33,560 nucleotides of DNA from an uncultured Candidatus Saccharibacteria bacterium (GTDB lineage: Bacteria > Patescibacteriota > Saccharimonadia > Saccharimonadales > CAIOMD01), in NCBI GenBank assembly GCA_964587465.1, contig CAZPLH010000002.1, positions 639 through 34,198 of the forward strand, given 5' to 3'. Below are positions 2,208-33,560 of the stretch, piece after piece. Under the pieces are notes generated by a model. The model saw only the letters and a program-made list of their open reading frames with translations. It was not told the DNA's origin and did no database searches. The stretch's first letter is position 1, and each line of letters begins with the position of its first letter. The position numbers and the translations under genes are program-made.

Positions 2208-2255
2208 TTAGATTTGTCCTCCAGACACCAATCTGCATACAGTTAGTATAGGCCA

Positions 2256-3866: not shown

Positions 3867-3867
3867 T

Positions 3868-4074: not shown

Positions 4075-4081
4075 ATTTCTA

Positions 4082-6178: not shown

Positions 6179-6184
6179 TTTGGC

Positions 6185-9330: not shown

Positions 9331-9338
9331 TATTGCCC

Positions 9339-9692
9339 CTAGGTCGTCTGCCCGGTTTGTAACAAGCTAGTCACGGTATATGCCCCGGCGGAATTGTAAT
9401 TGTGGTCGCCGGCCAATACAAACTCGCCGCCAAAAGTGCCCAAGGTAGCTTGATCCCAAATTGTAACAGAGTACAAAGTGCCATTGGGCGTGCCATTGGT
9501 AAAGTAAATCAGGTCTTGTATATCAAAGTTACCACCGGCAGTTGCCTCGGCCCACGAAAATGCCACCCTAATTGACGCGGCTTTATGGCTAGTACCATCC
9601 ACGCCGGCTGCGGCGGTATGCAATTGCGCGTATTTGTATTTGTTGCGTATCGCATTTGCCGCATCCGTCATTGCCGCATCGGAAAATGGCAC
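9339..9692 (-). CDS. Hypothetical protein, probably tail-fibre associated
   Basis: 117-aa ORF 8 nt upstream of the tailspike gene, with beta-rich composition. Function is inferred from position only. Confidence 0.4.
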   Translation of the reverse strand: MPFSDAAMTDAANAIRNKYKYAQLHTAAAGVDGTSHKAASIRVAFSWAEATAGGNFDIQDLIYFTNGTPNGTLYSVTIWDQATLGTFGGEFVLAGDHNYNSAGAYTVTSLLQTGQTT

Positions 9693-9699
9693 AATGCCC

Positions 9700-9996
9700 C
9701 TAGCTCAAACCAGTAGTACGCAGATACGCCTTGTTCACAATCGCATTCTGCTTGTCAGCCTTGGCCTGCGTCGTGTTATCTGGCGTAGTTGTCCGCTTAC
9801 CACCAGCAATCGGCCACTGTAGCGGGTCATTGGCAGGGTAGTCCATGCTGGCACGTACAGCAGGCACGCTGGGTGCACCGCCAGTACAGCCACGCCGCAC
9901 TTTGTTCCACGGCTTTGCAGGCCCCTGGCCTTGGGCATTAACCCGCCCGCGGTTCTTGGCTACATTGTTACCCCACGGCAGCAGTCGCTTTGCCAT
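9700..9996 (-). CDS. Hypothetical basic protein
   Basis: 98-aa ORF. Its start overlaps the stop of the upstream gene at 9996. It fits the coupled gene chain better than the alternative-frame ORFs. Confidence 0.4.
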   Translation of the reverse strand: MAKRLLPWGNNVAKNRGRVNAQGQGPAKPWNKVRRGCTGGAPSVPAVRASMDYPANDPLQWPIAGGKRTTTPDNTTQAKADKQNAIVNKAYLRTTGLS

Positions 9997-10403
9997 TAGC
10001 GCGCACCTCCGCCACCTTTTGGCCCCAGGCTTTTGGGTCGGCGCGGCCCATTATGCTCGCCAGCGCTACCAGCAGCCGGTGCACCACCACGCCCGTTACC
10101 AACGCCTCTAACAGTAGTCCTATCCCCACCAGGGCCACGAACATTGTAGTGCGCGCCGTTGGCGAAAGTGCCACCGCTTTTGGCCGGCCCACCCATACCG
10201 CTGCGGTTACCGCCTCCTGGGCTCTGCCAAGCAGACCCCTGGCCACGCTTACCATCACTGAAGCTGTTGCTGATACCACCACTCTGGGCTACGCTGGGCT
10301 TATTGCCCTGAGCACCCGCAGGAAAGCCCTTGGCGTCCTGCCCGGTACCACCAGATAGCTTGGTGATACCGCTACCACGCTTACCGCGTCTGTTATTTGC
10401 CAT
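9996..10403 (-). CDS. Glycine/arginine-rich, predicted disordered basic protein
   Basis: 135 aa: MANNRRGKRGSG...GGGNRSGMGGPAKSGG...GPKGGGGAR. The start follows directly after the stop of 10404..10946. The competing ORFs (9968..10282, 9990..10358) break the coupled chain. Confidence 0.45.
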   Translation of the reverse strand: MANNRRGKRGSGITKLSGGTGQDAKGFPAGAQGNKPSVAQSGGISNSFSDGKRGQGSAWQSPGGGNRSGMGGPAKSGGTFANGAHYNVRGPGGDRTTVRGVGNGRGGAPAAGSAGEHNGPRRPKSLGPKGGGGAR

Positions 10404-10946
10404 TTAGAACTCACCTTCAACAGGCTCATCGGGGTTGACCACAGGCTCATCGGGCGTGGGCTCAGGTTCGGGCGTCGGCTCGGGCTCAGGGGTCGGCTCT
10501 GGTTCCGGCTCAGGCAGCGGCTCTGGCTCAGGCGCTGGCTCCTGGAGACCATCAAGAGTGGACTGAAGGTCGTCAGCGAACGCCTGCGCCTGATCAGCAA
10601 GCTGCTGCGCGTCCGTCGCGGCGTCGTCGGCCTGGAACTGCGCAAGCGCGTCAGCAGCGGCCTGGGCCTTGCTCTGCGCATCTGCGAGGGCTGCCCGCAG
10701 TTCGGCATTTTCTGTCTTCAGGCCCGTGGCAAAGTCCACCCATGCCTGCTTGACTTCTGCGAAAGTGCTCATAATCAATTCTCCTAACTGGGTAATATGG
10801 TTTTGTACGGCATTGGCTGTCACCAACAAGTTCGCTTGTGCCATTGCGACCTTATCCAAATTCGCTTGCATCGTTGCGAGTTTGTCAAGGTCGCTCTTAA
10901 TGCTCTTGGCCCATTCAGGTTCGCCAAGTAGATCCAACAGACTCAT
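10404..10946 (-). CDS. Coiled-coil protein with C-terminal Pro-Glu repeat tract
   Basis: 180 aa. Heptad-like Ala/Gln/Leu-rich N-terminal two thirds. C-terminus is EPAPEPEPLPEPEPEPTPEPEPTPEPEPTPDEPVVNPDEPVEGEF. Confidence 0.55.
   Translation of the reverse strand: MSLLDLLGEPEWAKSIKSDLDKLATMQANLDKVAMAQANLLVTANAVQNHITQLGELIMSTFAEVKQAWVDFATGLKTENAELRAALADAQSKAQAAADALAQFQADDAATDAQQLADQAQAFADDLQSTLDGLQEPAPEPEPLPEPEPEPTPEPEPTPEPEPTPDEPVVNPDEPVEGEF
10421..10545. repeat. In-frame short tandem repeats (18-nt period for the PEPEPT units; a 15-nt unit CAGGCTCATCGGGG/C repeated at a 21-nt offset for the DEPV units)
   Basis: CAGGCTCATCGGGG at 10421 and CAGGCTCATCGGGC at 10442, then the imperfect series ggctcaggttcgggcgtc / ggctcgggctcaggggtc / ggctctggttccggctca / ggcagcggctctggctca. 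Confidence 0.7.
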
Positions 10947-10979
10947 GCGGCTGCCATTTCTGCGCTCTGCTCTCTGCGG

Positions 10980-11186
10980 CTAGTGGCCCGGCGAACCGGG
11001 CATTCCATAGTGGCTCGTGCCATAAGGGCTGAAAGTGCCAGGCCCGTTAGGCATATCACTTGAGCGCACCGGTCGGTGGCTACGCGTGATCAGGAACTGC
11101 TTGATCGCCATGCGGTCAGTGTTGTCAGATACGCGTGGGATCGGCTGAAGTGCCCTACGCGCAACAGTATTCCAGCTCTTGCCCAT
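10980..11186 (-). CDS. Hypothetical protein
   Basis: 68-aa ORF. It is the first gene after the 143-nt gap containing the hairpin at 11215..11253. Confidence 0.4.
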   Translation of the reverse strand: MGKSWNTVARRALQPIPRVSDNTDRMAIKQFLITRSHRPVRSSDMPNGPGTFSPYGTSHYGMPGSPGH

Positions 11187-11214
11187 TTTAACTTGCCCAC
11201 CTAAGTGTTGGTTT

Positions 11215-11253
11215 GCCCCCGACGCAGACCAGAAGGGTGTCTACGCCGAGGGC
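11215..11253 (-). promoter_or_regulatory. Strand-specific RNA hairpin between the YegP-like gene and the virion-side genes
   Basis: Minus-strand RNA GCCCUCGGCGUAGAC...GUCUGCGUCGGGGGC forms about 15 bp including 3 G-U pairs. These become C-A mismatches on the plus strand. No U-tract follows. Confidence 0.3.
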
Positions 11254-11329
11254 AAAGCGGGTGACCGAGGCACTCACAGATTTAGTATATCGCATATTCG
11301 CGTACCGCGCCGATTGTAAGTTTCTGGCC

Positions 11330-11512
11330 CTAAATGGTCATGTTGTTAAGCTCGCAATTGCGCTTAGCAGCCTCAAGGGTGTTGAAGCCTTCCGTGCTTG
11401 CGCCAGTAATCTTGCCATTGGCCGCGCGAATATGCCAACGCCACTCACCAGCCTTGTCTTTGTAGAACGCAGGCCCAGGCGGTGCACTTTCACCAGGGTT
11501 AACCGTTGTCAT
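11330..11512 (-). CDS. YegP-like (DUF1508) single-domain protein
   Basis: The internal ATG at 11512 has GGAG 9 nt upstream. MTTVNPGESAPPGPAFYKDKAGEWRWHIRAANGKITGASTEGFNTLEAAKRNCELNNMTI matches the DUF1508 pattern (F..ykd.aGe.R..l.A.NG..i..S.gy....a). The track ORF extends to 11581, which would overlap the upstream gene by 83 nt. Confidence 0.8.
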   Translation of the reverse strand: MTTVNPGESAPPGPAFYKDKAGEWRWHIRAANGKITGASTEGFNTLEAAKRNCELNNMTI

Positions 11513-12488
11513 TTTCGTGCTCCACTTCTTCTGCGTCCTGGTCTTGTGTATCTGCCAAACCGAAGCTAATGCGGTTACCAACTAGTTCAGCGGTAATTTC
11601 TGTATCTGGCCCAAATGCATCTGCGCCAGTTGCCTTTGCGATCTTGCGTCGCTTCTTGGCATCCTGAATACGCTTGCGGTTGTCTTTGCGCGCCGCTACC
11701 AGATCCTGTTGACTTTGTAGCGCATTGGTCAAGGCGTCATGTTCCTGTTGGTGCTGCTCATGGTCGTGCGTAGCAGTCGAACTTGAGTTTGCCGGCTCAT
11801 CATAAGTTGGCGCTGGCGGGGCATATGTAATCCGTGGATCACCCGGTGCAAAATCACGTAGTGGTGGTGTTACCTGGTTCTCATCTACCCCGCCAGCGTT
11901 GTCTTTGTTCTCCTGGCGACTATCAAAGCCAGGATCATTGGTAGCAAATTCGCCGTCGCCAATTACCTCTGCGTCAATTACACCTGCCCGCAACGCCCGA
12001 CTTTGCTCCTGGCTGATTCTGGCAATGCCAGTCATCATTTCTTCCCATGGCGCCTTGGTGACAGTTACGGCTACACGGTCAGGTGTCTTACCGGCAACGC
12101 GCTCGAAAATGTACTTGGCTGCTTCCAGTCTATCACGTGGCTCATTGGTTGGGTCCTCAGCTACACTTACCATGACATCGATCATGTGGTCTAGCTTCTC
12201 ACGTAGCCTGTGGTTGAATCTGGCTTCGTGCTCAACTACCATTGCGTCGTAAATGTCACGCGGAATTGGCTCAGTCTTGTTCTTGGTACGTGGTATGCGG
12301 CCATTCTTGTCGCGGCATTTTCCGGCCCGCAATTCCTCGTCGTCCAAGTCCGCCACGGTGATGTAGCCGTGGTTGAATAGCTCTTGGCGGCTCATGCCGC
12401 GCATTTTGATCTCGCGCTCAAATTCTTCTTCAGCGGCAGACTTCACCTGCTGGAACCACGGCTTAAGTGCCATTACAAAGCACCCCAC
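11499..12488 (-). CDS. Hypothetical protein, possible small-terminase-like DNA-binding protein
   Basis: 329 aa, GTG at 12488 or ATG at 12473. NEPRDRLEAAKYIFERVAGKTPDRV resembles the conserved helix found in many TerS-type phage proteins. The C-terminal half is acidic and Gln-rich. Confidence 0.45.
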   Translation of the reverse strand: MGCFVMALKPWFQQVKSAAEEEFEREIKMRGMSRQELFNHGYITVADLDDEELRAGKCRDKNGRIPRTKNKTEPIPRDIYDAMVVEHEARFNHRLREKLDHMIDVMVSVAEDPTNEPRDRLEAAKYIFERVAGKTPDRVAVTVTKAPWEEMMTGIARISQEQSRALRAGVIDAEVIGDGEFATNDPGFDSRQENKDNAGGVDENQVTPPLRDFAPGDPRITYAPPAPTYDEPANSSSTATHDHEQHQQEHDALTNALQSQQDLVAARKDNRKRIQDAKKRRKIAKATGADAFGPDTEITAELVGNRISFGLADTQDQDAEEVEHENDNG

Positions 12489-14584: not shown

Positions 14585-17449
14585 CTATGTCAACAATCTC
14601 ATGCCCATGTACCGTCGGCTTTGCTTGCCTTCCACAGTCCTATTTTCTGGCCGGCCCAGATTCAATGCGCGGGTTAAGTTCTCCATTGGCTCTGGTTTCT
14701 GCCCAACAGTAACGCACCACCTCTCATACAATTGGTACACGGCACTCGCAATTGGCGTCCATTCTACAGCCCAATCAGCTACTCCAATCTTCGTCTTATT
14801 ACGCTTGGCAGCCTTACGTGCAGCCTCTTCATATGCCAATCGCCCCTCAGGCGTCTTCACAGCAAACTCTACATTCTCATCAATAAACTGCTGTAGCGGG
14901 TTCAAATTGCTAACAAGATCACCAACAACTTCACAAACAACACCAGGCCACGTTCGCCTTGGCATCTTCTCCTCTTGATACATTCTCAAGCCTTCTACCA
15001 ACCAACTCAAGACAGCAACACCAGCATGTCGCAAAGCTATCTGCTTGTTGGGGTCAACCAAGCCATCAGGTATAGACGTTTCAAATGGCAATACCAAAAC
15101 ACGTTTCATCAACACTTCATCTGCATGGCGTATATCAGGTATCACATTCAAAGCCACAATAGGCGTAAACTGCGGCACGGCAACAAATGGCTTATTGCTA
15201 AACTTCATTTCCACACTTATGGGGTCATTGCCCGTCAACCGTTTAATCTGTTCGCCATCCAACACCTCACCAATCTCAGACATGCCCACCACTCGGCACG
15301 GTATTGAGTCAACCAGAGTTGGGTTAAATGTAGCACCAGACCTAAACAGTTTCGGGCTAACTGTGCCATAATACTCTCCAAGCGCGCCTTCAATCGCGCC
15401 CAAAATGGTGCTCTTGCCGGTACTACGTGGCCCATACAAAAACAACATCAGCTTGTCTGGGTTACCACCAGGCAACATATGCCCAAGCGCTTTCTGTACA
15501 AAGCGCCTGTATTCTGGGTCTGGCAAGAACAGCTCCAGATACTCCTGCCACAGACGAAATTGGTCCTCATAGCCGCCATCATACATCTCTTGGCTGCCCC
15601 ATTCGATGTAGTCCACGTTCGTGTTATAGGTAACAAAGTCCTCCCGCATAGGCGGTCTAACCCGTGTCTCATGACCAACCAAACCATTAAGGTCCAAGAT
15701 GCCATTAGCACAACCAAGCAAATGCGTTTGGGCATCAAAGGCGCTATCACAAGCTACTCCAGGCAAAGTAGTCATGACCTCCAAAGAACTCTTGATCCGG
15801 CTAGCATTACCACATTGCGTCGCCCAATTCAAGGCAGCTCTGCGCGCCGCAATTTCATCTTTGGCTACTGCTGGCATAGCCAGCGCTGCCTCACGCAACC
15901 TTCTGCTAACAACATCAAAGGCTTGCCAAGCCAATTTGGTATCATTATGCCACCTAATACCATCCCAAACCACCCAGCCTTTCCTTGCCTCCACATACAA
16001 CAAATTATCTGTGAATATGTCAACCAAGTGCCTGGCGTTGCCACGATCATTGCGGTCATACTTGCTCGGGTCGGTATCCATTTTAGCCATAGGGCCAATT
16101 ACCGGCCCTAACCCGCCATGGTCGCCGGCTGCTATTCTGCCATCGGGGTCATCAACCTCAGCAAAGTTCAGCTTAAAGCCATCAACATCATAGTCAGCAG
16201 CATTAGCAGCGCCCACAGCACCAGCACTTTCGCCAGCACTAGCAGCACCCGGCCTACAACTACTTGTCTTATTACCCGTACACTTATGTGGCAATTCGGT
16301 AAAGTTGGGCTCCACTTTCGCAATTGCGCCCGTTACCAGCCGGTTAACCTCCGCCAAGGCATCATCAACGCCACGCTTATCCGTCTGCTTCACGACTTTG
16401 AACCAGGCGTTGGCATACTTGTTGATAGCAGTCAGCCAGCCGCCGTGGCTTTCCGCCCCCAGCATTACCAGCTCGTGTATTGCATTCTTAGCAGATTCAT
16501 GCAGGTTGGCGGGGTCAATCTTGGTTATCTGCTTCCCCAGCTGCATATTCATGAAGTAACACGGGTCACCAGTACTGTCAGCAAAGTGTTCAACAGCCCA
16601 ATCCATTAGTTCATCAAGCGGCAACTCACTTCGGGCATCTTCAGTTTCGGCAATAAACCCCTTGGTCAGGAAGTCTAACCAGGCTTCAGGCAGCACGGCC
16701 ACATCACGCAAACTCGGCAACAAACTCGGGTCGGGCGCACCGGCTAGCCCCGGCGTACCCGCCCCGCCTACACCACAATTTCCAGCAGGTTCCCCGGCCT
16801 CGTCGTAATATGCGCCGTCGGGTCGGCGCCACCGGTATATACCGGCCTCGGCAACTCCTGGTACGTCGCTCGCAGTTTCGGCGTCAGGGTGCACGCTGGG
16901 GTATACCAGCAGATACCGGTGCGCTTTTTGGATAACATCAATATTGGTAGCTGCTTGTCCTACAAACCTATAGCCAACGGGCACAAGGTATAGCGCTGTA
17001 TAACTATCTGGACGGGTTTGCCACCTAGCACTGCTTTGTATGGTTGCTGGGAGATTACCAAGGTCTTGTTCAAGCTTGTGTAATTGATCCGCGCCACGCT
17101 TATCGCCATAGTGGTCAATATCCAATCCAATTAGTTCCCAACCACAGGGCTTCTCACCCTTTGGTACAAACCCGCCGACGTCGCCAAGTCGCAGGGCTAT
17201 GTTACATGGTCCACGAACTACACCACCAATTGGCGGCACTATAAATGCACCCGTTACACCCTCAGCACCCTTAGCCTTGGTTCCTTTATTGCGTCGCCAG
17301 GCCTCAATTTCAAATTCGCTTGGGTACTTGGCAGATCTGCCAGTATACCCGCTAGGCGGCGGGCTTTTCTGCTTATATGGCAATGGCAACGGCCCATAAA
17401 AGCCGTTGCCCGTATATGTATGTGCCCAATCATATGGGTTATTGGTCAT
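14585..17449 (-). CDS. Bifunctional primase-polymerase (PrimPol) / D5-like SF3 helicase
   Basis: 954 aa. N-terminal PrimPol-like CNIALRLGDV...WELIGLDIDHYGDKRG. C-terminal P-loop LFLYGPRSTGKSTILGAIEGALG in the arrangement typical of phage/plasmid primase P4-D5 proteins. Confidence 0.9.
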   Translation of the reverse strand: MTNNPYDWAHTYTGNGFYGPLPLPYKQKSPPPSGYTGRSAKYPSEFEIEAWRRNKGTKAKGAEGVTGAFIVPPIGGVVRGPCNIALRLGDVGGFVPKGEKPCGWELIGLDIDHYGDKRGADQLHKLEQDLGNLPATIQSSARWQTRPDSYTALYLVPVGYRFVGQAATNIDVIQKAHRYLLVYPSVHPDAETASDVPGVAEAGIYRWRRPDGAYYDEAGEPAGNCGVGGAGTPGLAGAPDPSLLPSLRDVAVLPEAWLDFLTKGFIAETEDARSELPLDELMDWAVEHFADSTGDPCYFMNMQLGKQITKIDPANLHESAKNAIHELVMLGAESHGGWLTAINKYANAWFKVVKQTDKRGVDDALAEVNRLVTGAIAKVEPNFTELPHKCTGNKTSSCRPGAASAGESAGAVGAANAADYDVDGFKLNFAEVDDPDGRIAAGDHGGLGPVIGPMAKMDTDPSKYDRNDRGNARHLVDIFTDNLLYVEARKGWVVWDGIRWHNDTKLAWQAFDVVSRRLREAALAMPAVAKDEIAARRAALNWATQCGNASRIKSSLEVMTTLPGVACDSAFDAQTHLLGCANGILDLNGLVGHETRVRPPMREDFVTYNTNVDYIEWGSQEMYDGGYEDQFRLWQEYLELFLPDPEYRRFVQKALGHMLPGGNPDKLMLFLYGPRSTGKSTILGAIEGALGEYYGTVSPKLFRSGATFNPTLVDSIPCRVVGMSEIGEVLDGEQIKRLTGNDPISVEMKFSNKPFVAVPQFTPIVALNVIPDIRHADEVLMKRVLVLPFETSIPDGLVDPNKQIALRHAGVAVLSWLVEGLRMYQEEKMPRRTWPGVVCEVVGDLVSNLNPLQQFIDENVEFAVKTPEGRLAYEEAARKAAKRNKTKIGVADWAVEWTPIASAVYQLYERWCVTVGQKPEPMENLTRALNLGRPENRTVEGKQSRRYMGMRLLT

Positions 17450-23019: not shown

Positions 23020-23235
23020 CTAGAACAACGGCTCCTTTTGCATCGGGGGTTGTTTACCTAAAATGGTGCCTTTATTAACAGCTCCGCGTTCCATTCTATC
23101 GAATTTGGCGCAGTCTGCCAGATAGCGCATATCAATAGCAATACTTGCTAGGGCCAAGGCTTGCATTGCTTGGGTATTGGTGTATGCGGCACCATCATCG
23201 ACCATCTGGCGTAATTGCTCAAGCGGGTCTTTCAT
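23020..23235 (-). CDS. Hypothetical protein
   Basis: 71-aa ORF. Its ATG overlaps the thyX-like stop by 4 nt. Confidence 0.5.
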   Translation of the reverse strand: MKDPLEQLRQMVDDGAAYTNTQAMQALALASIAIDMRYLADCAKFDRMERGAVNKGTILGKQPPMQKEPLF

Positions 23236-24095
23236 TTTGGCGTAATCCCAATCTGGTGGCGCTTGGACACGAAAGTGCGGTTGTCCTCACGGGCCCACGG
23301 GAAGTCGCACTGGCCCTCAACCTGCTCCCAGCCTTGGAAAGTGCACTTCTGCGGCTTCTCGCAACTGATCTTCGCATACGGCGCAATCCACGGGTGGGCT
23401 TCTACCAACACATCCCGCATCTGTCGCATGACAGATACAATTTCCCACGAGAACATCGAGCAACCACGGTAGGCATAGACCGCCAACCACTCCCGAATGC
23501 TGTACTCGCAAAGAATGTAATTGGTTGTCGCCTCCCCAAGGCAGTACCGCGCATCCTGGTAGCTGATGTCTTCTTCACAAGCAATTTGGTAGGCGAAACG
23601 AGCCGCATCAGCAGCAACCAAATATGCATTACGGGCGCGATCATTAGCCCAGATTGACTCCGGCACGCGCACTTCAGGCTCATCACCATAGTAGTGCGCA
23701 CGCTGGCTCTGCTGGTGGAAAGCGGCACGCCGCGACCTAACCAACTGATGTGTGCAAGTGCGGCTTACCCCGCCAACCTCAAATACAATGACTTGGGTCT
23801 CAAGCGCGGTCTGTAGGCCACCCTCCAGCATTTCCTCCCAGTCCGCCACATCCGGCGGGTTATCGGGGTCAACACCGATCGTGGCATTGATCGCACGCGA
23901 AAGTGTCTTGCGCATCTGCTCTTCATCGATGCCCTGCACCAATTTGACATTGATGCCGTCGGTACCAACTTGAACCATACCGTTGTCGCGTGGGTTACGC
24001 GGCTCACCTTGGTCGAAACTGAGGCGGTTAAAGGCAACATCCTTGGTAATGCCTTCAACGCGCTGGTCCGCAAATTCGCGGCTGTACTTCATCAT
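23232..24095 (-). CDS. thyX: Flavin-dependent thymidylate synthase (ThyX)-like protein, divergent signature
   Basis: ALETQVIVFEVGGVSRTCTHQLVRSRRAAFHQQSQRAHY aligns with the ThyX motif region (..QL.RHR..S..Q.SQRY). DARYCLGEATTNY...YAYRGCSMFSWEI aligns with AR..LP....R...AQ.EIR. Several canonical residues are replaced. Confidence 0.75.
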   Translation of the reverse strand: MMKYSREFADQRVEGITKDVAFNRLSFDQGEPRNPRDNGMVQVGTDGINVKLVQGIDEEQMRKTLSRAINATIGVDPDNPPDVADWEEMLEGGLQTALETQVIVFEVGGVSRTCTHQLVRSRRAAFHQQSQRAHYYGDEPEVRVPESIWANDRARNAYLVAADAARFAYQIACEEDISYQDARYCLGEATTNYILCEYSIREWLAVYAYRGCSMFSWEIVSVMRQMRDVLVEAHPWIAPYAKISCEKPQKCTFQGWEQVEGQCDFPWAREDNRTFVSKRHQIGITPK

Positions 24096-24096
24096 T

Positions 24097-24360
24097 TTAC
24101 TGCCCTTCTGTTTTCATCATACTTGCGTCTGCCTCAGACATATACGCCCACTCCTTATAGATCAACTCCTCAACTGGTATGGCAATACACTCCTTGTTCT
24201 CACCATTTACGGCGATCACGGTCTTGACCGGCTCAATGCCAATCTGGGCCAGGCTTTTCAGCACCGACTGGTATGGCGGCTTTCTGGGCGTACCGCCACC
24301 AAATACACCTCCCAAGGTATTAGCGACCCGCTTTGCGGCATCTGCTTGCGGATTAGTCAT
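24097..24360 (-). CDS. Hypothetical protein
   Basis: 87-aa ORF. Its start overlaps the DnaE-core stop by 8 nt. Confidence 0.5.
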   Translation of the reverse strand: MTNPQADAAKRVANTLGGVFGGGTPRKPPYQSVLKSLAQIGIEPVKTVIAVNGENKECIAIPVEELIYKEWAYMSEADASMMKTEGQ

Positions 24361-26686
24361 CTTGCATCACCCACATATCTCTCACTTGAATGCTTACGCC
24401 AAAGCCATCTCGCTTGACGCCTTTAAACAGAACTATGTCTTTGCCCAAATTGATACTCTCAATTTGCTCTTGTAGTTTGGGGAAGGTCCAACGGTTTACG
24501 CGGCAATAGCATTCGTCGTCCCCATCATCGACACATTTCAGCACGCAACCCTTTAACAAGTCTGGGTCTCTCATATTCGCCAGGATCTCATCGACATCCT
24601 TGCCGGTCCTGGCACGCTCATCCTCAATGTAGTCCTTGTATTCCCGAATCTGCGGGATACCGGCCCAGACAACTTCATGCGTTCCCTCACGGGGAATGTC
24701 GTCGCTAGTCTCATGTGTGTAGTTGGGCAGATAGTACCGGTGACTGTTATCTAGTAACCATTTTCGGAAAGACACCATTCGGTTACTAATCACCTTGAGA
24801 CCAAATGGATCAGGGTTATCGACAAAGTCAGCAATCTTGTTAATTGTCGACGGGCCAATGCCTTTAATCTCCAAAAGGTCATCCCAATCCGGCAACGGGC
24901 CTGACCAATCCATATCCTCAAGGTAATTGACTATAGCAGTAGCAGTTTTAGGGCCGATACCGGGAATTTGCCTGAACCCGGCGCATACGGTATTAGTATC
25001 CGGCGCGGTCCAATTCTCGTCGCTATCAAGCAAATCGGGCGGCGCAACCGTAATGCCATGTCGCATAGCATCTTTGAGCAGCCGATTTCGGCGGGTTTCA
25101 TCCGGCGTCTTGCGCAATTGCGCTGCGTAAAATGCTGTAGGGTGGTGTACTTTCAACCACATCTGCCAGAAAGCTAGCATGCTATAACTGATACAATGCG
25201 CCACGTTGAAAGAGTATGTGGCTGAGGTAGCCATGAAGCGCCAAATTCGTCGCGCTTGCGCCGGCGTGCACCCGTGTTGGCTACACGCATTCTCCTCAAA
25301 TTCCTTGTACATCTCATCAAATTGGGCCTCACCCAACTTCTGCGAAATGATCTGCCGAATTGCGTGGATCTTGGTCATTGGAAACCCGCCCAAGTCGCGG
25401 ATGATCCGTAGTACCTGCTCCTGATAGATTATCTGGCCGTAAGTCCATCCAGCATATTCATCCACAATCGGGTGGTAGTGCTCTATGGTTTGTCGATTAT
25501 GCTTGACATCGATATATGCAGCTGCCATCCCCGAGAACAATGGCCCTGGACGCGATAAAGCGTTGATGTCGGCGAGGTGCTGAAAGTGATCGGGCTTGAC
25601 ATCCCGACAGACAAGACGTGTTGCCCTACCCTCAAATTGAAAGATGCCGGTGACGTCATTATTACGAAACGCTTCCAGTGTTCTGGTGTCCGTAAGCGGT
25701 ACACGATACAAGTCCTCCAGATCCATGTCGATCATATTCAAAGCGTGGCCGATCATACCCATGGTAGCTAGGCCCAGGATATCCTGTTTCAGGAAGCCAA
25801 CATATGCGGCATCCTTTTTGTCATAGGCAATTACGGTTATGTCGCGGCCATCTTTGTTTCGCGTATATGTAGCGCAGAAGTCATTGATTGGCGCGTTAGC
25901 AATTACCAGGCCGGCTGCGTGTACGCCCATGCCCCGATAGTTGCCCTCAAGCTTTATGGCGTTACCTAGTTCGGGGTAGCGTTCAAGTACTTCACGAGCC
26001 TTTGGGAAGGTTGCAAACGTATCTTCTAGCGAGTCGCTTAGCCGCGAATCTCCACCGGATCGTTCGATGATCAGGCCCTTGACAGTTTCAACTTCCCACT
26101 TCGGTATCTGGTAAACCCGCGCCACGTCATCGAGACTGTTCTTACCACGATAGCGAGTGAAGTTGGCAATATGCCCAACGTTGCCTGCCCCATATTTGCT
26201 GGCTGCATATTCAAATACCTCGTGACGGCGCTCATCATCAAAGTCAAGGTCGATGTCCGGCGCTTCTGTTCGCGTTGGGTCGATGAATCGCTCAAAGAGC
26301 ATATTCGGGTGCTGTAGCGGGTCCACTTCTGTGATGCGCAGAAGGTAGCAAACCAAACTGGCAGCCGCGCTACCACGCCCCGGTCCAACTGGTATCTTGT
26401 TATCCTTGGCCCAGCGGACAATATCGCTGGTGACCATGAAGTAGTCAACAAAGTTCTTGCTTATGATTAGTTCTAGCTCATATTCGGCGCGCTCAATGTA
26501 TTCCTGCTTGCGCTTCACCATATCCGTGTTGCCAGTACGGTGTACGCGAAACTGCCAACCGAAGTTCATCCACTTTCGCAGCAACGCGATTGCTTCGGGG
26601 CTGGCGGGGTTAACCAATGCATTTTCAAGCCCTGTTGAGTATGCGCCAACCAGTTTGGCTACCCTGGCCGCTACGTCGTCAGCCAT
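24353..26686 (-). CDS. dnaE: DNA polymerase III alpha (DnaE-type) polymerase core: palm/thumb/fingers, HhH, OB; lacks a PHP domain
   Basis: 777 aa. YELELIISKNFVDYFMVTSDIVRWAKDNKIPVGPGRGSAAASLVCYLLRITEVDP is the canonical DnaE palm entry. HhH-like GIGPKTATAIV and IKGIGPSTINKI. OB-like C-terminus. Confidence 0.9.
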   Translation of the reverse strand: MADDVAARVAKLVGAYSTGLENALVNPASPEAIALLRKWMNFGWQFRVHRTGNTDMVKRKQEYIERAEYELELIISKNFVDYFMVTSDIVRWAKDNKIPVGPGRGSAAASLVCYLLRITEVDPLQHPNMLFERFIDPTRTEAPDIDLDFDDERRHEVFEYAASKYGAGNVGHIANFTRYRGKNSLDDVARVYQIPKWEVETVKGLIIERSGGDSRLSDSLEDTFATFPKAREVLERYPELGNAIKLEGNYRGMGVHAAGLVIANAPINDFCATYTRNKDGRDITVIAYDKKDAAYVGFLKQDILGLATMGMIGHALNMIDMDLEDLYRVPLTDTRTLEAFRNNDVTGIFQFEGRATRLVCRDVKPDHFQHLADINALSRPGPLFSGMAAAYIDVKHNRQTIEHYHPIVDEYAGWTYGQIIYQEQVLRIIRDLGGFPMTKIHAIRQIISQKLGEAQFDEMYKEFEENACSQHGCTPAQARRIWRFMATSATYSFNVAHCISYSMLAFWQMWLKVHHPTAFYAAQLRKTPDETRRNRLLKDAMRHGITVAPPDLLDSDENWTAPDTNTVCAGFRQIPGIGPKTATAIVNYLEDMDWSGPLPDWDDLLEIKGIGPSTINKIADFVDNPDPFGLKVISNRMVSFRKWLLDNSHRYYLPNYTHETSDDIPREGTHEVVWAGIPQIREYKDYIEDERARTGKDVDEILANMRDPDLLKGCVLKCVDDGDDECYCRVNRWTFPKLQEQIESINLGKDIVLFKGVKRDGFGVSIQVRDMWVMQDD

Positions 26687-27597
26687 GGCTCATAGTCCCG
26701 TTCATCGATGGGGTACTTAATTGGTTCCACCTTAGGCAATACCACATTACAGCGGTCGGCGATTAGTGATGTATTCTCCAAGGCCTGAACAGCCGCATCC
26801 TCTGAAAGACCTGTTCCCACAAGATCCCGGTGGACTCGCTCATCGGACTCTGGTATGTCAAGGGTGATATCATACTCCCAGGACGCTTCAGTTTGGGACA
26901 CAGTACTGCTACGGTGAGACGCATGAAGAATCTTTTGCATCTCGTTTTGGTTAGGAGTGCAGTAATGGCAATCGCTCGTTGCAGCAAGACCCGCTCCGGT
27001 ATCTGCTGATAGCCTTTCATGCGCGACAGCGAGCGTGCGAGTACGGTCCAGTCCAGGAAATCTCTGGCACTCAATGTAGAATCTATCACCAAATACCTTC
27101 TGGTACCATCGTACAAGCCCAATGGCATTTTCGTAGCTGTCGGCAGTAACCGTATCTCGCTTGTCACCAAAGTATTTTCCACCCAGCAACGTGCACGAGA
27201 GCGCGCTGTCGGCACATCCCGATAAGATGATGAGGCCTTCACTGTATTCCTCCAACCGATCCAGGTGTATGGTTGGCCATCTGTAGAAATCCCGCCAGGA
27301 TTGGCTCACGAGCTTGTTCAAATTGGCATACCCAATTTGGTTCATAGCCAGAATGGTCTGATGAGTTTTACGATTTTGCGACGGCGGCGCAATATAGCCC
27401 TCAACGCCGAATATGGGCTTGATGTCAAATTCAGCCGCGGCTTTCTCAAGCATGACGTGACTGCTAACATTACCATGTTCGGTCAGAGCCATGGCTTTCA
27501 TGCCATAGGCTGCCGCGGTCATTACGTGCTCCCGCGGCAGCCCAAAACCGTCGCCATAGCTCATGGTTGAGTGATGGTGAAGGCTGACATATTGCAT
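26671..27597 (-). CDS. dnaE: Stand-alone PHP domain corresponding to the N-terminus of DnaE
   Basis: 308 aa. MQYVSLHHHSTMSYGDGFGLPREHV...ALTEHGNVSSH...IFGVEGYI is the PHP metal-binding pattern. It ends in TAG at 26671, 16 nt inside the next ORF, which is in the -1 frame. Confidence 0.9.
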   Translation of the reverse strand: MQYVSLHHHSTMSYGDGFGLPREHVMTAAAYGMKAMALTEHGNVSSHVMLEKAAAEFDIKPIFGVEGYIAPPSQNRKTHQTILAMNQIGYANLNKLVSQSWRDFYRWPTIHLDRLEEYSEGLIILSGCADSALSCTLLGGKYFGDKRDTVTADSYENAIGLVRWYQKVFGDRFYIECQRFPGLDRTRTLAVAHERLSADTGAGLAATSDCHYCTPNQNEMQKILHASHRSSTVSQTEASWEYDITLDIPESDERVHRDLVGTGLSEDAAVQALENTSLIADRCNVVLPKVEPIKYPIDERDYEPWLTT

Positions 27598-27598
27598 A

Positions 27599-27736
27599 TT
27601 AGTAGGTCAGCGACCCGTCATCGACACCCTTCTTCAGGTGCTCCTTGTCCTCGTCGGTGAGCTCCTTCCAGTCATTGGCGAACTCACGGGTGCCCATCTC
27701 GAAGAACTCCTTGACACCCAACATTCCCTTGGCCAT
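27599..27736 (-). CDS. Small hypothetical protein (45 aa)
   Basis: ATG 27736 (MAKGMLGVKEFFEMGTREFANDWKELTDEDKEHLKKGVDDGSLTY) shares a nucleotide with the TAA of the upstream small ORF. AAGGA lies 9 nt upstream. The track ORF start at 27790 is an in-frame extension into that upstream ORF. Confidence 0.5.
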   Translation of the reverse strand: MAKGMLGVKEFFEMGTREFANDWKELTDEDKEHLKKGVDDGSLTY

Positions 27737-27891
27737 TACTGGTTCCTTTCCTCGTGTTCCTTCTGTTGCCGGTCTACAAAATCTCGACATTCATCCAGGT
27801 CATCAAACCCGAAAATGTTTGTCAAAATCTCATAGTCGCGCCTGACTAATACACCAGCCCACGGATTTGCTATCCGTCGCCTATCAGCCAT
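27736..27891 (-). CDS. Small hypothetical protein (51 aa, not in the ORF track)
   Basis: Hand translation gives MADRRRIANPWAGVLVRRDYEILTNIFGFDDLDECRDFVDRQQKEHEERNQ. GGAGG lies 7 nt upstream of ATG 27891. The stop is coupled to the next start (TAATG). Confidence 0.55.
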   Translation of the reverse strand: MADRRRIANPWAGVLVRRDYEILTNIFGFDDLDECRDFVDRQQKEHEERNQ

Positions 27892-27922
27892 TTTCACGCC
27901 TCCGCTACCGGGCCGGTCTAGG

Positions 27923-28456
27923 CTAGTCTACCTTACCGCCATCCGTATAGCTACTGTCCAGAGCGAGCAAAATATGGCCGAGTAAATCGGTAAGTATCTC
28001 TTTGGTTTGCTCGCCTACCAACGGCTTACCCTCCCAAAGTGAACTCTTCAACTTATGTACTTTGCGCCAGATCTCTACAAATTCACCCTTATCGCCGAGA
28101 TTGGGCCAGTCCGCATAGTCCTTGTTCTTCTCTAGGAAATGCTGTAGTGCATTAGGCAAGACATCATACACAATGCGCTTAGCCTGTTCACTTGGGATGT
28201 GGTCAACTTCATAAGTTGCCTTGTCCTCTGCTATGCGCTCAACAAATACTGTTGGCCTGGTAGGGTCGAATTTGAATGGCGGGGCACCAAGCACACCGTG
28301 TGCTGGGTTGATGGTGGTATTCAACCCACGTTCACGCATGATGGCGGCTTGCGTCGTCTCGTTGACGGCCAATGGACCGCTATGACTGGCTTGGCCAGGC
28401 ACAGCTAAAAACTCTGCTATAGCCTTGGCATCCTCATATTGGTTGCTCATGGTCAT
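27923..28456 (-). CDS. DUF1599-like / MazG-like all-alpha nucleotide-metabolism protein
   Basis: 177 aa. LEKNKDYADWPNLGDKGEFVEIWRKVHKLKSSLWEGKPLVGEQTKEILTDLLGHILLAL resembles, as I recall it, the DUF1599 pattern K..DYg...G..G....K..R......E...D...D...Y. Confidence 0.5.
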   Translation of the reverse strand: MTMSNQYEDAKAIAEFLAVPGQASHSGPLAVNETTQAAIMRERGLNTTINPAHGVLGAPPFKFDPTRPTVFVERIAEDKATYEVDHIPSEQAKRIVYDVLPNALQHFLEKNKDYADWPNLGDKGEFVEIWRKVHKLKSSLWEGKPLVGEQTKEILTDLLGHILLALDSSYTDGGKVD

Positions 28457-29067
28457 TGGTTCTCATCCTTCCATTGTTGAATCAATTTGCTGATCATATA
28501 GGTCAAGTCAAACATGTCCACAGCTCGCATGCCATGAGGTGGAAAGTAGTGTCTGTTATATGGTTGGTCGCGCAAGATTGTTGGTAAGCCTGCCATATTC
28601 GCTTGCTCGACTAGTTCCGGTAGATCGTCTGCTACCGCCGCTACACGCTCTGCTCCGACGTTGCGCACGAGGTCGCGGTACTTATGCGGACCGTGTATGA
28701 TGGCATCATATTGAATATGGTTGCGTCGGCACCAATGTAATGTGTCCTTGTAAAGCTGATCATACTTAAGGTAGGGCCGGGTAGTACACAACCAAATTGA
28801 GGCTCCAGCTTTGCGAACTTGCTGAGTTAACTCACTGGCCCCTGGGTAAACAGGCATTGAGCGCTCAAGCCCGCCCTGCCGGTATGCGAGTTTGCACTGG
28901 CGGTAAGTTGCCTTAGATGTCCGCATGAACTTATGTAGTGGCAGACCAGGGTTGATGGTGTCCGCGGCAGGCATAGGCCGGCCATACCAGGCTTCCGCAA
29001 ACTTGAGGAAATGACCGTGATAATTGCCTAGCGTACCATCAATATCAAGTGCAACTATGGGCTTCAT
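28453..29067 (-). CDS. HAD-superfamily phosphatase (5'(3')-deoxyribonucleotidase-like)
   Basis: Motif I IVALDIDGTLGNY (DxDGT). Motif II LCTTRP. Late acidic motif AAVADDLPE. Its stop overlaps the ATG of the downstream DUF1599-like gene by 4 nt. Confidence 0.75.
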   Translation of the reverse strand: MKPIVALDIDGTLGNYHGHFLKFAEAWYGRPMPAADTINPGLPLHKFMRTSKATYRQCKLAYRQGGLERSMPVYPGASELTQQVRKAGASIWLCTTRPYLKYDQLYKDTLHWCRRNHIQYDAIIHGPHKYRDLVRNVGAERVAAVADDLPELVEQANMAGLPTILRDQPYNRHYFPPHGMRAVDMFDLTYMISKLIQQWKDENQ

Positions 29068-29357
29068 GCGTCGTCCTGGTCAAGGATTGACAATACTTTA
29101 TCTATGACCTTACGGCGAGCATCCATACTCATCGCAGTTTCATATGATTTTGCTGATTGCGCAAGCCGGTCATACCTATTTGTCTCAGCAATCAAGTGCG
29201 CTCGCACCCGCGCTTCTTGTGCACGCAATTGCTCAAGTTCACGCACATCCGGTAGTGATGCAATTACTGCAGATGCAACTTCTTTTTCACGACCGAATGC
29301 TACCTGTTTATGCTTCAGCACTTGCTCGACAATTTCCATGCACTCACGAGGTGTCAT
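29064..29357 (-). CDS. Hypothetical helical protein
   Basis: 97-aa ORF with 4-nt overlaps on both sides. Confidence 0.5.
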   Translation of the reverse strand: MTPRECMEIVEQVLKHKQVAFGREKEVASAVIASLPDVRELEQLRAQEARVRAHLIAETNRYDRLAQSAKSYETAMSMDARRKVIDKVLSILDQDDA

Positions 29358-30169
29358 TTTGTACCTCCAAATATCCTGACAGCATCATAGAACGCATCAC
29401 TGGTCAAAATGCCCTTCTGCCAAGCACCATAGCGACCTAAGTGGTGCATATCCTGCGCGGCGCGTATGTTACACTTTAGTGGCTTTTGTATCAGGCTTGC
29501 ACCCGCCTTGGGCGGGGTCCACCCTGTATCTGACCAAGTACCGGCATCTAGCGGCCACTCAACCGTAACATAACCATAGATATGGCTAGCGCGGTACCAA
29601 CTTGGCTCGGCATTTCCATTACAGATTACGGTAAATGGCTCAGGTCTATCATCTACGCGTTGTGTATCTGCGTCACCCATAGCCCAAACTCCCTGTACTG
29701 AAAATGTATCCCATTCATCCGCCCAGATAGTTCGTGGTACAGTAGATACAACTTCATCGAAATGATTGAGTATGGTATATAAGTCAGCCGGCCCAATATG
29801 GTCTTTGGTGATAGCAGCATCACAAATATCTATGTTGTACAACTCCCACAGCCTATCATAGACCGCCCGAATGTCCCATGCTAAGTGCTCTTCTGTCAGA
29901 TCCTCGGGGCTAACGCTATGATCCCAAAATGGGTCGTCACCATACACTTTGCGCCGGTATTCCTCAACGTCACCCTCAAGAAGATAGCGCACCATATTCG
30001 GTTCACCGCAATCTAGTCTGGGTATGTCTTTGTGTAGATATTGGGCGCCATACAACGGGCTTTTGCGCTTACGGCTATATATGCGGAAGTCCCAACCAGC
30101 TAAGTTAGCGGCGTGGGCCACCAACAATCCCGCCGGGCCGCAGCCTAAGATTGCTACGCTCTTGGTCAC
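29354..30169 (-). CDS. Short FAD/NAD(P)-binding Rossmann flavoprotein (UGM / amine-oxidase-like ends)
   Basis: GTG 30169 with GGGAG 5 nt upstream. N-terminal dinucleotide fingerprint SVAILGCGPAGLLVAHAANLAG. C-terminal HLGRYGAWQKGILTSDAFYDAV resembles the GR.g.y.y...d.a closing motif of GLF/amine-oxidase-type flavoenzymes. Only 271 aa. Confidence 0.6.
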   Translation of the reverse strand: MTKSVAILGCGPAGLLVAHAANLAGWDFRIYSRKRKSPLYGAQYLHKDIPRLDCGEPNMVRYLLEGDVEEYRRKVYGDDPFWDHSVSPEDLTEEHLAWDIRAVYDRLWELYNIDICDAAITKDHIGPADLYTILNHFDEVVSTVPRTIWADEWDTFSVQGVWAMGDADTQRVDDRPEPFTVICNGNAEPSWYRASHIYGYVTVEWPLDAGTWSDTGWTPPKAGASLIQKPLKCNIRAAQDMHHLGRYGAWQKGILTSDAFYDAVRIFGGTK

Positions 30170-30268: not shown

Positions 30269-30886
30269 TTAGAACGGTGAGTCATCCAGGTCGTCGTCAT
30301 CGAAATCATCCTCAGCATCATCCACATCGTCATCGTCGTCACCCGACGCGTTGGATTTGCCTTCATACGGAAGGTATTCATTGACCTTGGCGCGGAAATT
30401 GCCCTTGAGATCCTGGTCGGGAGCGGCGACCGCCTGAACCAGAAGCTCACCATTCGGGGAATTGATCTTGTACTTACCAATCTGCTTGATATGTACCTCC
30501 TCATCACCCCTCTTGTTGGTGATCTTGTCGGCCTTGGGCCCTTCACCCCAGAAAGAGTTCTCGACTGCCTTCTTCTCTGCCTCGCTACCATCAGTCAAGG
30601 CGTGGAGGAATGCATTCACAAACCCGGTGCCGCTCTTGATGATATTGACGCCATCCCAAACAGGGTGCCCCTTGTACTTGGCGGCGCTGTCAGGGCCAAC
30701 CAACTCAAGCAGAATCGAAATACGCGGCTTGCCTTGGTTATCGCCGGCTGCCTTGATGGCACCCATGGTCATGCGTTTCACTTTGAAGATGTACACGCCT
30801 TTGGTCAGATCGGGGCCATTGTACCCCATCCCACCGGCGGGATCATCCCCACGGCCATCAATATCGAACTTCAGTCGAAATGCCAT
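30269..30886 (-). CDS. Single-stranded DNA-binding protein (T7 gp2.5-style acidic tail)
   Basis: 205 aa ending SGDDDDDVDDAEDDFDDDDLDDSPF, an acidic tail with a terminal aromatic residue. It sits between the recombination ATPase and the replication genes. Confidence 0.6.
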   Translation of the reverse strand: MAFRLKFDIDGRGDDPAGGMGYNGPDLTKGVYIFKVKRMTMGAIKAAGDNQGKPRISILLELVGPDSAAKYKGHPVWDGVNIIKSGTGFVNAFLHALTDGSEAEKKAVENSFWGEGPKADKITNKRGDEEVHIKQIGKYKINSPNGELLVQAVAAPDQDLKGNFRAKVNEYLPYEGKSNASGDDDDDVDDAEDDFDDDDLDDSPF

Positions 30887-33012: not shown

Positions 33013-33208
33013 CGGTATCCTCAATTACGATTGTTATCGAATCACGCTCACGCTGATCATATCCCGGCGAATAGCTGAATCTTACAACATCATCTCCCTG
33101 GTGGGCAGACAAGATGTTGGCTAGCTCACCTACACTACAGGTGATACCATCCAAGTGGATGGATGTACTACGGGTCACTTTCATATTGCTCGCCTCAGTA
33201 GTATCCAT
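32999..33208 (-). CDS. Hypothetical protein (start uncertain)
   Basis: Both ATG 33208 (GGGAG 6 nt upstream) and ATG 33184 (GAGG 9 nt upstream) are plausible. The track start at 33286 lies inside the upstream gene. Confidence 0.4.
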   Translation of the reverse strand: MDTTEASNMKVTRSTSIHLDGITCSVGELANILSAHQGDDVVRFSYSPGYDQRERDSITIVIEDTDVIF

Positions 33209-33560
33209 GGCCGGCTCCCAGGTAATTGTCGATGTTACCACCATGAAGCTCTGACCACTCTCGCCAATCGGGCAGGTAGTCATCAAGCATTTTACGCCAC
33301 TTGTATGTCAGCTTGTCCGGCTTGGCGGCTTTGGCATATCCAGGGAACTTTTCAGCTATCCGAGCCACGGCGTCACGAGTTGCCTGGCCTTTGGCGCCTA
33401 CTACGTCGCCATCAGTTACGGCATCTTCTAGTGCGGCTACGCCACCCGGTGCGAATCTGGCGGCCATTGAATTTGACTTAGCGTCAAGGTGAATCAGCCA
33501 TGGGTAGCCGGCAATGAATCCTCTGATTACAAAGTCAGCATCGTCACCACACTTCAAGTC
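33195..33560 (-). CDS. Hypothetical protein, 5'-partial (open at window end)
   Basis: The reading frame is open to the last base of the window. The 'M' at 33557 is a TTG. Confidence 0.45.
   Translation of the reverse strand, partial: DLKCGDDADFVIRGFIAGYPWLIHLDAKSNSMAARFAPGGVAALEDAVTDGDVVGAKGQATRDAVARIAEKFPGYAKAAKPDKLTYKWRKMLDDYLPDWREWSELHGGNIDNYLGAGHGYY

Follow-up and report, generated by a model that had tools for sequence, protein, structure and literature searches.

Base-replacement pathways have been described in several phages: the T4 pathway comprises a dCTPase, a dCMP hydroxymethylase and glucosyltransferases, SPO1 is a 5-hydroxymethyluracil (5hmU) phage, and the S-2L-type Z-genomes involve PurZ, MazZ, DatZ and DpoZ. 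Phages RB69 and DLP3 have 5-hydroxycytosine (5hoC)-arabinosyl DNA (PMC13326640). The Asgard wyrdviruses carry a dUTPase-ThyX-NMAD1 arrangement that the authors of the study read as thymidylate synthesis (bioRxiv 10.1101/2021.07.29.453957). Here we describe a block of four genes next to a split DnaE polymerase and a ThyX-like gene in 33,560 nt of phage DNA (the window), which corresponds to positions 639 to 34,198 of contig CAZPLH010000002.1, deposited under an uncultured Candidatus Saccharibacteria bacterium. The block encodes a predicted flavoprotein (OXR), a 97-aa open reading frame (ORF), a predicted HAD phosphatase and a 177-aa protein termed NMAD1-like after Nucleotide modification associated domain 1. 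With a probability of roughly 45 %, we consider the block to be a pyrimidine-pool module that serves the ThyX-like enzyme and raises thymidylate supply. The four genes may, in an equally tentative placement, form the front end of a conserved pyrimidine-deoxynucleotide sub-module in the replication cassette of DnaE-encoding actinophages. The gene families and their linkage were observed directly; the roles of the individual proteins are inferred.

The closest described loci are those of cultured actinophages. Onyinye has an identical architecture with overlapping starts and stops, in which an oxidoreductase, a small gene, a phosphatase and a hypothetical protein (gp78-gp81) are followed by a split DnaE (gp82/84) and a ThyX-like gene (gp86). 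The features of the window that correspond to this arrangement are as follows.

29354..30169, minus strand: OXR, predicted flavoprotein, 271 aa, GTG start
29064..29357, minus strand: 97-aa ORF, in the slot between the OXR and HAD genes
28453..29067, minus strand: predicted HAD phosphatase, 204 aa
27923..28456, minus strand: NMAD1-like protein, 177 aa
27599..27897, minus strand: two short ORFs that separate the block from DnaE, of 53 aa (27736-27897) and 63 aa (27599-27790)
26671..27597, minus strand: N-terminal PHP domain of DnaE as a separate ORF (PF02811, E 4e-36)
24353..26686, minus strand: DnaE core with Pol III alpha NTPase, finger and HhH regions (PF07733, E 9e-75; PF17657, E 3e-36)
23232..24095, minus strand: ThyX-like gene, 287 aa (PF02511, E 2.6e-26)

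Identities between the window and Onyinye were 48 % for OXR, 48 % for the NMAD1-like protein and 60 % for the ThyX-like protein. The cultured relatives differ from the window in having an unrelated small gene in the second slot, in lacking a TAGT-like glycosyltransferase (GT) and in G+C content, which is 51.7 % in the window and 56-64 % in the related cultured and metagenomic loci. All three junctions of the four-gene chain are 4-nt ATGA start/stop overlaps. Purine-rich stretches lie 5' of the starts (ggaggtacaaaATGA, gacgacgcATGA and aaggatgagaaccaATGA, with gggagataaGTG before the first gene, OXR), and the four densely packed genes are probably co-translated. A preliminary description of this DNA had reported such a chain, headed by a short FAD/NAD(P) Rossmann protein, with a DxDGT HAD protein of the deoxyribonucleotidase type in third place and with a split DnaE and a non-canonical ThyX downstream. 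Our analysis bore out each of these points: every ORF and ATGA junction was recovered, the PHP ORF, the core ORF and the ThyX-like gene were found as described, and the protein assignments agreed with the results given below. The start of the OXR gene is called differently by different gene callers, one assembly giving a 255-aa product without the GxGxxG motif. The 271-aa GTG start is favoured because homologue alignments begin at residues 1-5 and include the motif. Signals for promoters or terminators delimiting the block did not exceed those in shuffled controls, and the idea that the block is a separate transcription unit was rejected on this ground.

The gene order OXR, (HAD), NMAD1-like, DnaE, ThyX-like recurs in 126 cultured actinophages and in dozens of metagenomic contigs. 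It was found in Onyinye, Hawkeye, Benzema, Krampus, Rooney, Wollypog, Suzy and P3.1, and carriers also include Mycobacterium Plotvirus phages (PBI1), the Gordonia DV cluster and Streptomyces phage Gibson. The hosts of the carriers are Mycobacterium (Hawkeye, Onyinye), Gordonia (Suzy), Microbacterium (Krampus), Streptomyces (Rooney), Arthrobacter (Wollypog) and Nocardia (P3.1). The block order was also detected in 53 IMG/VR loci, in which six-frame ORFs were classified with phmmer seeds, and in 3 further metagenomic contigs. Genes were counted in the 34 loci whose sequence extends 9 kb or more downstream from the OXR gene. DnaE was present in all 34, the NMAD1-like and ThyX-like genes in 32 each, and HAD in 28, with OXR-HAD-NMAD-DnaE-ThyX as the commonest order. 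An SDR (FabG-like) gene was found in 16 of the 34 loci, uracil-DNA glycosylase (UDG) in 8, a methyltransferase in 7, a dCMP deaminase in 5 and a dCTP deaminase in 1. The preliminary description had proposed to check whether the genes co-occur with the thyX-like gene across relatives. They did, in counts that are confounded by descent, the same Cas4-Sak4-DnaE cassette being common to all loci. The order of this replication cassette is Cas4 exonuclease, Sak4/RecA-like protein, acidic SSB-like protein, the block, DnaE and ThyX-like. In relatives, the block genes go by no more specific GenBank names than 'oxidoreductase', 'phosphatase/nucleotidase' and 'hypothetical protein'. More than 120 GenBank records already contain the block under such generic labels, and the window contributes one more member.

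Much of the co-occurrence is accounted for by vertical inheritance, and one alternative, unlikely but worth serious weight, is that the four genes have no common pathway and are mere neighbours in a dense early/middle operon, their linkage reflecting inheritance of the cassette as a whole. In that case HAD would be either a generic nucleotidase or a polynucleotide 3'-phosphatase, the NMAD1-like protein would serve as a replication accessory or as a house-cleaning NTP pyrophosphatase, and OXR would have an unrelated role, for example in redox, repair or host takeover. In favour of this alternative, the entire Cas4-Sak4-DnaE-ThyX cassette is common to all 60-odd loci. The overlap chain is also not distinctive, because overlaps are the norm on the phage's own contig, where gene calls give 4-nt overlaps at 10/36 junctions and any overlap at 27/36. 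The same alternative is favoured by the loss of HAD from 6 of the 34 loci, by the match of HAD to a family of the polynucleotide kinase (PNK)-phosphatase type, by several phages that have a true DUF1599 gene beside polymerase or helicase genes without ThyX, and by the entry of repair genes into the slot between the NMAD1-like gene and DnaE. UDG stands there with a dCTP or dCMP deaminase in L012:7431-8895, L014:7359-8621 and eight IMG/VR loci, and Suzy has a pyrimidine-dimer glycosylase (PF03013) in the slot and a methyltransferase instead of HAD.

Three observations go beyond shared descent. Firstly, a local rearrangement in Krampus sets the ThyX-like gene exactly between OXR and NMAD1-like, in the order OXR-ThyX-like-NMAD1-like with 4-nt overlaps. 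Secondly, the genes that enter the slot in relatives encode enzymes acting on nucleotides and uracil. Thirdly, the association of ThyX, a phosphatase and DUF1599 recurs in unrelated viruses: in the crAss-like phage PhiCrAssBcn2 a DUF1599 gene adjoins two PNK/phosphatase genes with ThyX ~3 kb further, in Xanthomonas phage XcP1 ThyX adjoins PNKP, and the dUTPase-ThyX-NMAD1 arrangement of the Asgard wyrdviruses belongs here too. The first and third of these speak against a mere neighbourhood without a common pathway, as does the finding that OXR and the NMAD1-like gene stay together beside DnaE at OXR identities from 74 % down to 30 %.

If the block serves thymidylate supply, the module would divert the host pool to thymidylate in phages with 52-64 % G+C in the regions sampled. 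The cultured relatives have G+C-rich hosts. A dCMP or dCTP deaminase would feed dUMP in some relatives, and the ThyX-like protein would transfer a one-carbon unit to dUMP. The NMAD1-like protein would act as a nucleotide binder or pyrophosphohydrolase of the MazG-superfamily type, while HAD would trim dNMPs or, alternatively, act as a 3'-phosphatase. OXR would perform some flavin- or NAD(P)H-dependent step, possibly redox support for the ThyX-like enzyme. The product of the module is most likely canonical dTMP, and the deaminases and UDG in the slot of relatives fit an ordinary conversion of dC to dT at least as well as they fit DNA modification.

Several points weigh against thymidylate supply as the purpose of the block. 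OXR, its most conserved member, is without an assigned function. ThyX needs no separate reductase, and Pseudomonas phage PB1 and XcP1 have a histidine-less ThyX without OXR. Placing a 5'-nucleotidase beside a thymidylate synthase seems self-defeating if the nucleotidase accepts dTMP. The chemistry of the ThyX-like protein is itself uncertain because H53 is lost. It is not obvious what the methyltransferase and SDR genes within some relatives' blocks would contribute to plain dTMP supply, and the same module of this phage contains a DNA-glycosyltransferase-like gene.

The ThyX-like protein matched PF02511 with 93 bits (cut-off 24.8) over profile positions 44-191 only, and it scored below the cut-off of the NCBIfam equivalog TIGR02170 (67.1 vs 87.9 bits). 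For residue numbering it was aligned to Thermotoga maritima ThyX, whose sequence is identical to PDB 1kq4. The protein departs from the ThyX motif RHRxxSxxxxSxR, reading RSRRAAFHQQSQR at this site, with H79 replaced by S and the first Ser by A, and with S88 and R90 kept. Retained residues are E58, Q75, R78, R80, S88, R90, R147, R165 and R174, among which the dUMP-binding residues Q75, R78, R80, S88, R90, R147 and R174 were invariant in alignment A7, so that every residue that contacts the phosphate or the uracil of dUMP is kept. Changed residues are H53 (to L), H59 (to T), H79 (to S) and Y91 (to A), and the ADSHAQ segment is altered too. The RHR motif reads RSR, RQR or RTR throughout the clade. 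The conserved H53 of ThyX forms stacking contacts with the pterin of folate and with reduced FAD (PMC11940539). Judged by these sequence features, calling the ThyX-like protein non-canonical is justified.

The same histidine-less type of ThyX was found in PB1 (gp61; L079:281-1198) and XcP1 (gp49; L080:326-1084), which share with the window protein RTR, RSR or RQR in place of RHR, the absence of H53 and H59, and a C-terminal C-x(6,7)-C-x-F motif. The two proteins differ from the window ThyX-like protein in that they are only ~26-29 % identical to it and in that PB1 and XcP1 have no member of the OXR family. ThyX of STSV1 and phiCP34O was canonical. Two ideas were rejected in view of PB1 and XcP1: that OXR is, as a general rule, an obligate partner of histidine-less ThyX, and that the histidine loss is specific to this actinophage clade. 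The loss is a trait that marks a broader phage ThyX subfamily, because PB1 and XcP1 have the same type without OXR, and alone it ties the ThyX-like protein neither to OXR nor to DNA modification. We also observed that the C-terminus of the window protein adds a further Cys (…CDFPW) and that the Rooney protein has a CxxC-rich insert.

OXR carries the Rossmann motif ILGCGPAG (GCGPAG at residues 9-14) and matched phrog_8720 with E 7e-90. Pfam and NCBIfam profiles matched residues 1-47 at most (roughly the first 40), all below their cut-offs, and a search of the PDB with the OXR-family profile found nothing beyond the Rossmann motif. An AlphaFold model built on an alignment of 83 sequences had a pLDDT of 94.3. 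Foldseek against the PDB matched this model to class A flavin monooxygenases (VioD, HpxO, PHBH, TetX, MHPCO) and to UDP-galactopyranose mutase (UGM), with E 2e-7 to 1e-5, TMq 0.5-0.59 and probability 1.0. OXR thus has in common with these enzymes the N-terminal GxGxxG motif and the fold of the FAD domain. The 271-aa protein lacks the full-length class A monooxygenase architecture (~370-400 aa, with similarity at the family level): it is ~120 residues shorter, its sequence similarity ends at ~40 residues, and its family is confined to phages. The model suggests that OXR is a flavoprotein of monooxygenase/UGM-like fold.

The OXR family comprises 1618 clusters at 90 % identity, none of them with a Pfam domain. 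OXR was found in 126 phage records, all of them actinophages. In 185,579 species genomes there were 3 matches, all on contigs of metagenome-assembled genomes of 24.7-68.5 kb, and 2 of the 3 contigs carry the same replication cassette. Cellular homologues of OXR were rejected on the strength of these three contigs, and the family appears to be essentially phage-only.

The preliminary description had called the fourth gene product DUF1599/MazG-like. Scans of the 177-aa protein with Pfam and NCBIfam gave no match, including to DUF1599 and MazG; as remote homology, the relationship to DUF1599 was upheld by profile-profile alignment and fold search. Seven homologues gave no Pfam match at E up to 1, the family members listed by profile search included none with a precomputed Pfam domain, and none of ten long members (277-431 aa) scanned for fusions had one. 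The protein matched phrog_10271, and relaxed PHROG scans returned only families of unknown function. Searching the PDB with the profile of this family, which has 1341 representatives at 50 % identity, gave chance matches only.

The AlphaFold model of the 177-aa protein had pLDDT >90 for residues 80-170, with helices at 90-114, 121-141 and 151-175; the N-terminal half is variable and was poorly predicted except for a beta-hairpin. The BFVD matches of Foldseek were headed by the protein's own family, followed by many 'Nucleotide modification associated domain 1' proteins with probability 0.97-1.0. In the PDB, Foldseek returned repeated matches to MazG, iMazG and dCTPase, which were weak (E 0.5-3.5, TMt 0.4-0.6). 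Acidic residues stand at i, i+4 and i+8 on one helix and do not form the MazG-style ExxE. The family alignment (A3) was compared by hhalign with seven true PF07659 proteins (A6), namely the seed phiCTP1 gp74 (PF07659, 44.4 bits) and six more, and gave a probability of 95.6 % and E 1.1e-8 over 92 columns. The motifs KNxDY, K..(K/R)L and E...(E/D)...D...(H/Y) were in register between the two alignments, such that K110, D113-Y114, K132, K135, E149, E153 and D157 correspond to K21, D24-Y25, K48, R51, E67, D71 and D75, and H161 stands in place of PF07659 Y79. Residues ~90-175 are accordingly predicted, by remote homology and by the model, to be a divergent three-helix DUF1599/NMAD1 domain.

The two families thus have in common a three-helix core and a setting in phage replication or nucleotide modules, sometimes with ThyX. 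They differ in that the 177-aa family lies below detection by the Pfam HMM, has an extra variable N-terminal region of ~85 residues, has H161 and G160 in place of Y and N, and has W141 as a residue of its own. Phages of many unrelated host groups, among them streptococci, have true DUF1599 genes in their replication regions. A role of NMAD1 as a dihydroneopterin-triphosphate pyrophosphatase in folate synthesis was considered and dropped, no folate-synthesis family being found among the other scanned ORFs of the window and contig.

The 204-aa protein matched the NT5C profile PF06941 with 37.8 bits (cut-off 24.8) and E 2.3e-9 over profile positions 1-158/180. All four HAD motifs are present: ALDIDGTL (D8, D10), WLCTTRP, HKYRD (K129) and AVADDLPE. 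Homologues in actinophages have been labelled nucleotidase, phosphatase, hydrolase or nucleotide pyrophosphohydrolase by their depositors. From its sequence, the protein is predicted to be a DxDGT HAD phosphatase of the NT5C (5'(3')-deoxyribonucleotidase) type. It resembles these enzymes in its DxDGT motif I, its size and its Pfam score above the cut-off, and differs in that the sole solved NT5C deoxyribonucleotidase that it matched did so only very weakly (2jao, E 0.48). Its best PHROG was phrog_415 'polynucleotide kinase', a phosphatase-type HAD family (E 5.6e-24), and in view of this likeness to phage polynucleotide kinase/phosphatase the protein may instead be a polynucleotide 3'-phosphatase. 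The substrate may be a dNMP or 3'-phosphorylated DNA ends.

The 97-aa ORF matched no family in Pfam, NCBIfam or PHROG scans and nothing by tblastn in 50,697 phage records, and it was dissimilar to the small genes in the same slot of Onyinye, Wollypog and P3.1. Among the fetched loci it was present only in contigs of the same phage. We therefore rejected the ORF as a conserved member of the block, there being no match in phage records and unrelated genes in the slot of relatives, and its inclusion in the system proposed by the preliminary description falls with it. The ORF is a lineage-specific passenger in a variable slot.

A second alternative is that the block takes part in DNA base modification. 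The core genes would make a C5-substituted pyrimidine nucleotide, either because the ThyX-like enzyme stops at 5-hydroxymethyl-dUMP or -dCMP or because OXR hydroxylates C5, and DnaE would incorporate it; the canonical nucleotide would be removed by HAD and the NMAD1-like protein, and a TAGT-like GT and a TylF-like methyltransferase would, in this lineage, decorate the base on DNA. We regard this as rather improbable. Several results point towards it: the homology of the 177-aa protein to NMAD1 was confirmed, the ThyX-like protein lacks H53, H59 and H79 yet keeps its nucleotide-binding residues, the best structural matches of OXR are hydroxylases of aromatics and heterocycles (HpxO, VioD, PHBH), and some relatives have methyltransferase and SDR genes within the block. 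RB69 and DLP3 provide a precedent, in that dCMP is hydroxylated at C5 in a flavin-dependent reaction and glycosylation follows (PMC13326640).

The glycosyltransferase of this lineage lies upstream of the block, at the end of the window.

33195..33560, minus strand: C-terminal part of a TAGT-like GT-A glycosyltransferase; the gene runs past the window end and encodes 290 aa in full (L008:4390-5262)
L008:3675-4397: TylF-like methyltransferase gene directly upstream of the GT gene

On the phage's own 56-kb contig these two genes stand between the genes for an SNF2 helicase and Cas4. The full GT matched PF20691 (TAGT) above the Pfam cut-off (E 2.9e-10, 40.8 bits, cut-off 27.5), and its best PHROG was phrog_842 'beta-glucosyl-HMC-alpha-glucosyltransferase' (E 6.5e-7), a label for a DNA hydroxymethylcytosine glucosyltransferase. 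The GT was also present within the replication module of about nine metagenomic relatives. In one of these, L070, whose OXR is 35 % identical, it lies between DnaE and ThyX-like and overlaps the start of the ThyX-like gene by 4 nt (L070:15037-16796). The presence of such a GT in the same replication module is an unexpected point in favour of the modification idea of the preliminary description.

The Pfam match of the GT covers only the generic N-terminal half of the TAGT profile (positions 3-91/205), which weighs on the other side. Mycobacteriophage sets of a GT and an O-methyltransferase can glycosylate virions instead. The GT cannot explain the clade-wide core, because it was absent from all the cultured actinophages. 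It is an accessory gene of this lineage, outside the conserved block.

Further results also speak against base modification. Neither the window nor the 10 kb that precede the Cas4 gene on its upstream side, reaching about 9 kb beyond the window end, yielded a gene for a dNMP kinase, a ThyA-type hydroxymethylase, PurZ or TET/JBP, leaving the ThyX-like protein and OXR as the only candidates for synthesis of a non-canonical nucleotide. The histidine-less ThyX also occurs in PB1 and XcP1, and we know of no report of modified DNA in PB1-like phages. True DUF1599 genes are common in phage replication regions, and the fetched records show no hint of modified DNA. Both DUF1599 and histidine-less ThyX are widespread and extend to phages that lack all the other block genes. 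For none of the 126 carriers that have been cultured and sequenced did literature searches find a reported modification, which amounts only to an absence of evidence; the literature found on the block consisted of genome announcements listing annotations, with no reports of biochemistry or DNA modification.

Compared with the base-replacement pathways of the T4, SPO1, S-2L and RB69/DLP3 types, the locus is alike in having candidate pyrophosphatase and phosphatase genes beside the polymerase, an enzyme of a thymidylate-synthase family and, in this lineage, a GT. It differs in that no synthase of the new nucleotide was identified and no dNMP kinase found, and in that the thymidylate-synthase homologue is of the ThyX type and not of the ThyA type. 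The preliminary description had invoked base replacement or pool editing, with one enzyme making the new nucleotide and a dedicated polymerase copying the genome. Direct support for this was not found: the co-occurrence on which it could draw is confounded by common descent, no enzyme making the new nucleotide emerged, and DnaE is the normal polymerase of the clade and not demonstrably dedicated. More doubtful still is the specific version in which the clade-wide trio of OXR, NMAD1-like and ThyX-like proteins, aided by HAD, makes a C5-hydroxymethyl or hydroxy pyrimidine that replaces T or C, with the GT and a sugar-type O-methyltransferase glycosylating the base in the lineage of the window.

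OXR and the NMAD1-like protein represent large families, found only or mainly in phages, that lie next to the replicative polymerase across an actinophage clade. Thymidylate supply, if it is the purpose of the block, would show how phages with 52-64 % G+C in their sampled regions replicate in actinobacterial hosts, which are G+C-rich, and would give DUF1599-type domains a first role. An altered base would instead mean that modification can take a new route based on ThyX, with relevance for the evasion of restriction and for phage-therapy collections and with effect on more than 120 phages in culture collections. To our knowledge, this route would be the first DNA hypermodification pathway of the ThyX type rather than the ThyA type. 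The close relatives Onyinye, Hawkeye and Krampus are in culture, and the question is directly testable in them.

Some further features of the window surround these genes. The contig gene calls give the two small ORFs before DnaE as 51 aa and 45 aa; the 63-aa ORF (27599-27790) matched phrog_9674, and relatives carry a small gene at the same position between the block and DnaE. The PHP and core ORFs of DnaE overlap by 16 nt in different frames. Across relatives DnaE is fused (Hawkeye, Rooney), split (Krampus, Suzy) or split with an intervening gene or HNH endonuclease (Onyinye, Wollypog). The genes upstream of the block encode a 205-aa protein with an acidic tail, a Sak4/AAA_24 protein and a PD-(D/E)XK exonuclease of the Cas4 type. 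The 205-aa protein (30269-30886) has an Asp-rich, strongly acidic C-terminal tail and is probably an SSB-like (single-stranded DNA-binding) replication protein; relatives have an 'Asp-rich protein' in this position. Among the PHROGs that matched it was phrog_9460 (E 4e-32), whose label 'methyltransferase' looks mis-annotated. The left part of the window (594-12488) holds structural genes on the same strand as the block, together with large proteins without a Pfam match, and a primase-helicase gene follows.

594-2207: SPP1-type portal
6185-6961: glycine-rich domain protein
14585-17449: Prim-Pol/D5-type primase-helicase

The contigs closest to the window came from the Logan runs SRR28520276, SRR28520277 and SRR28520279.

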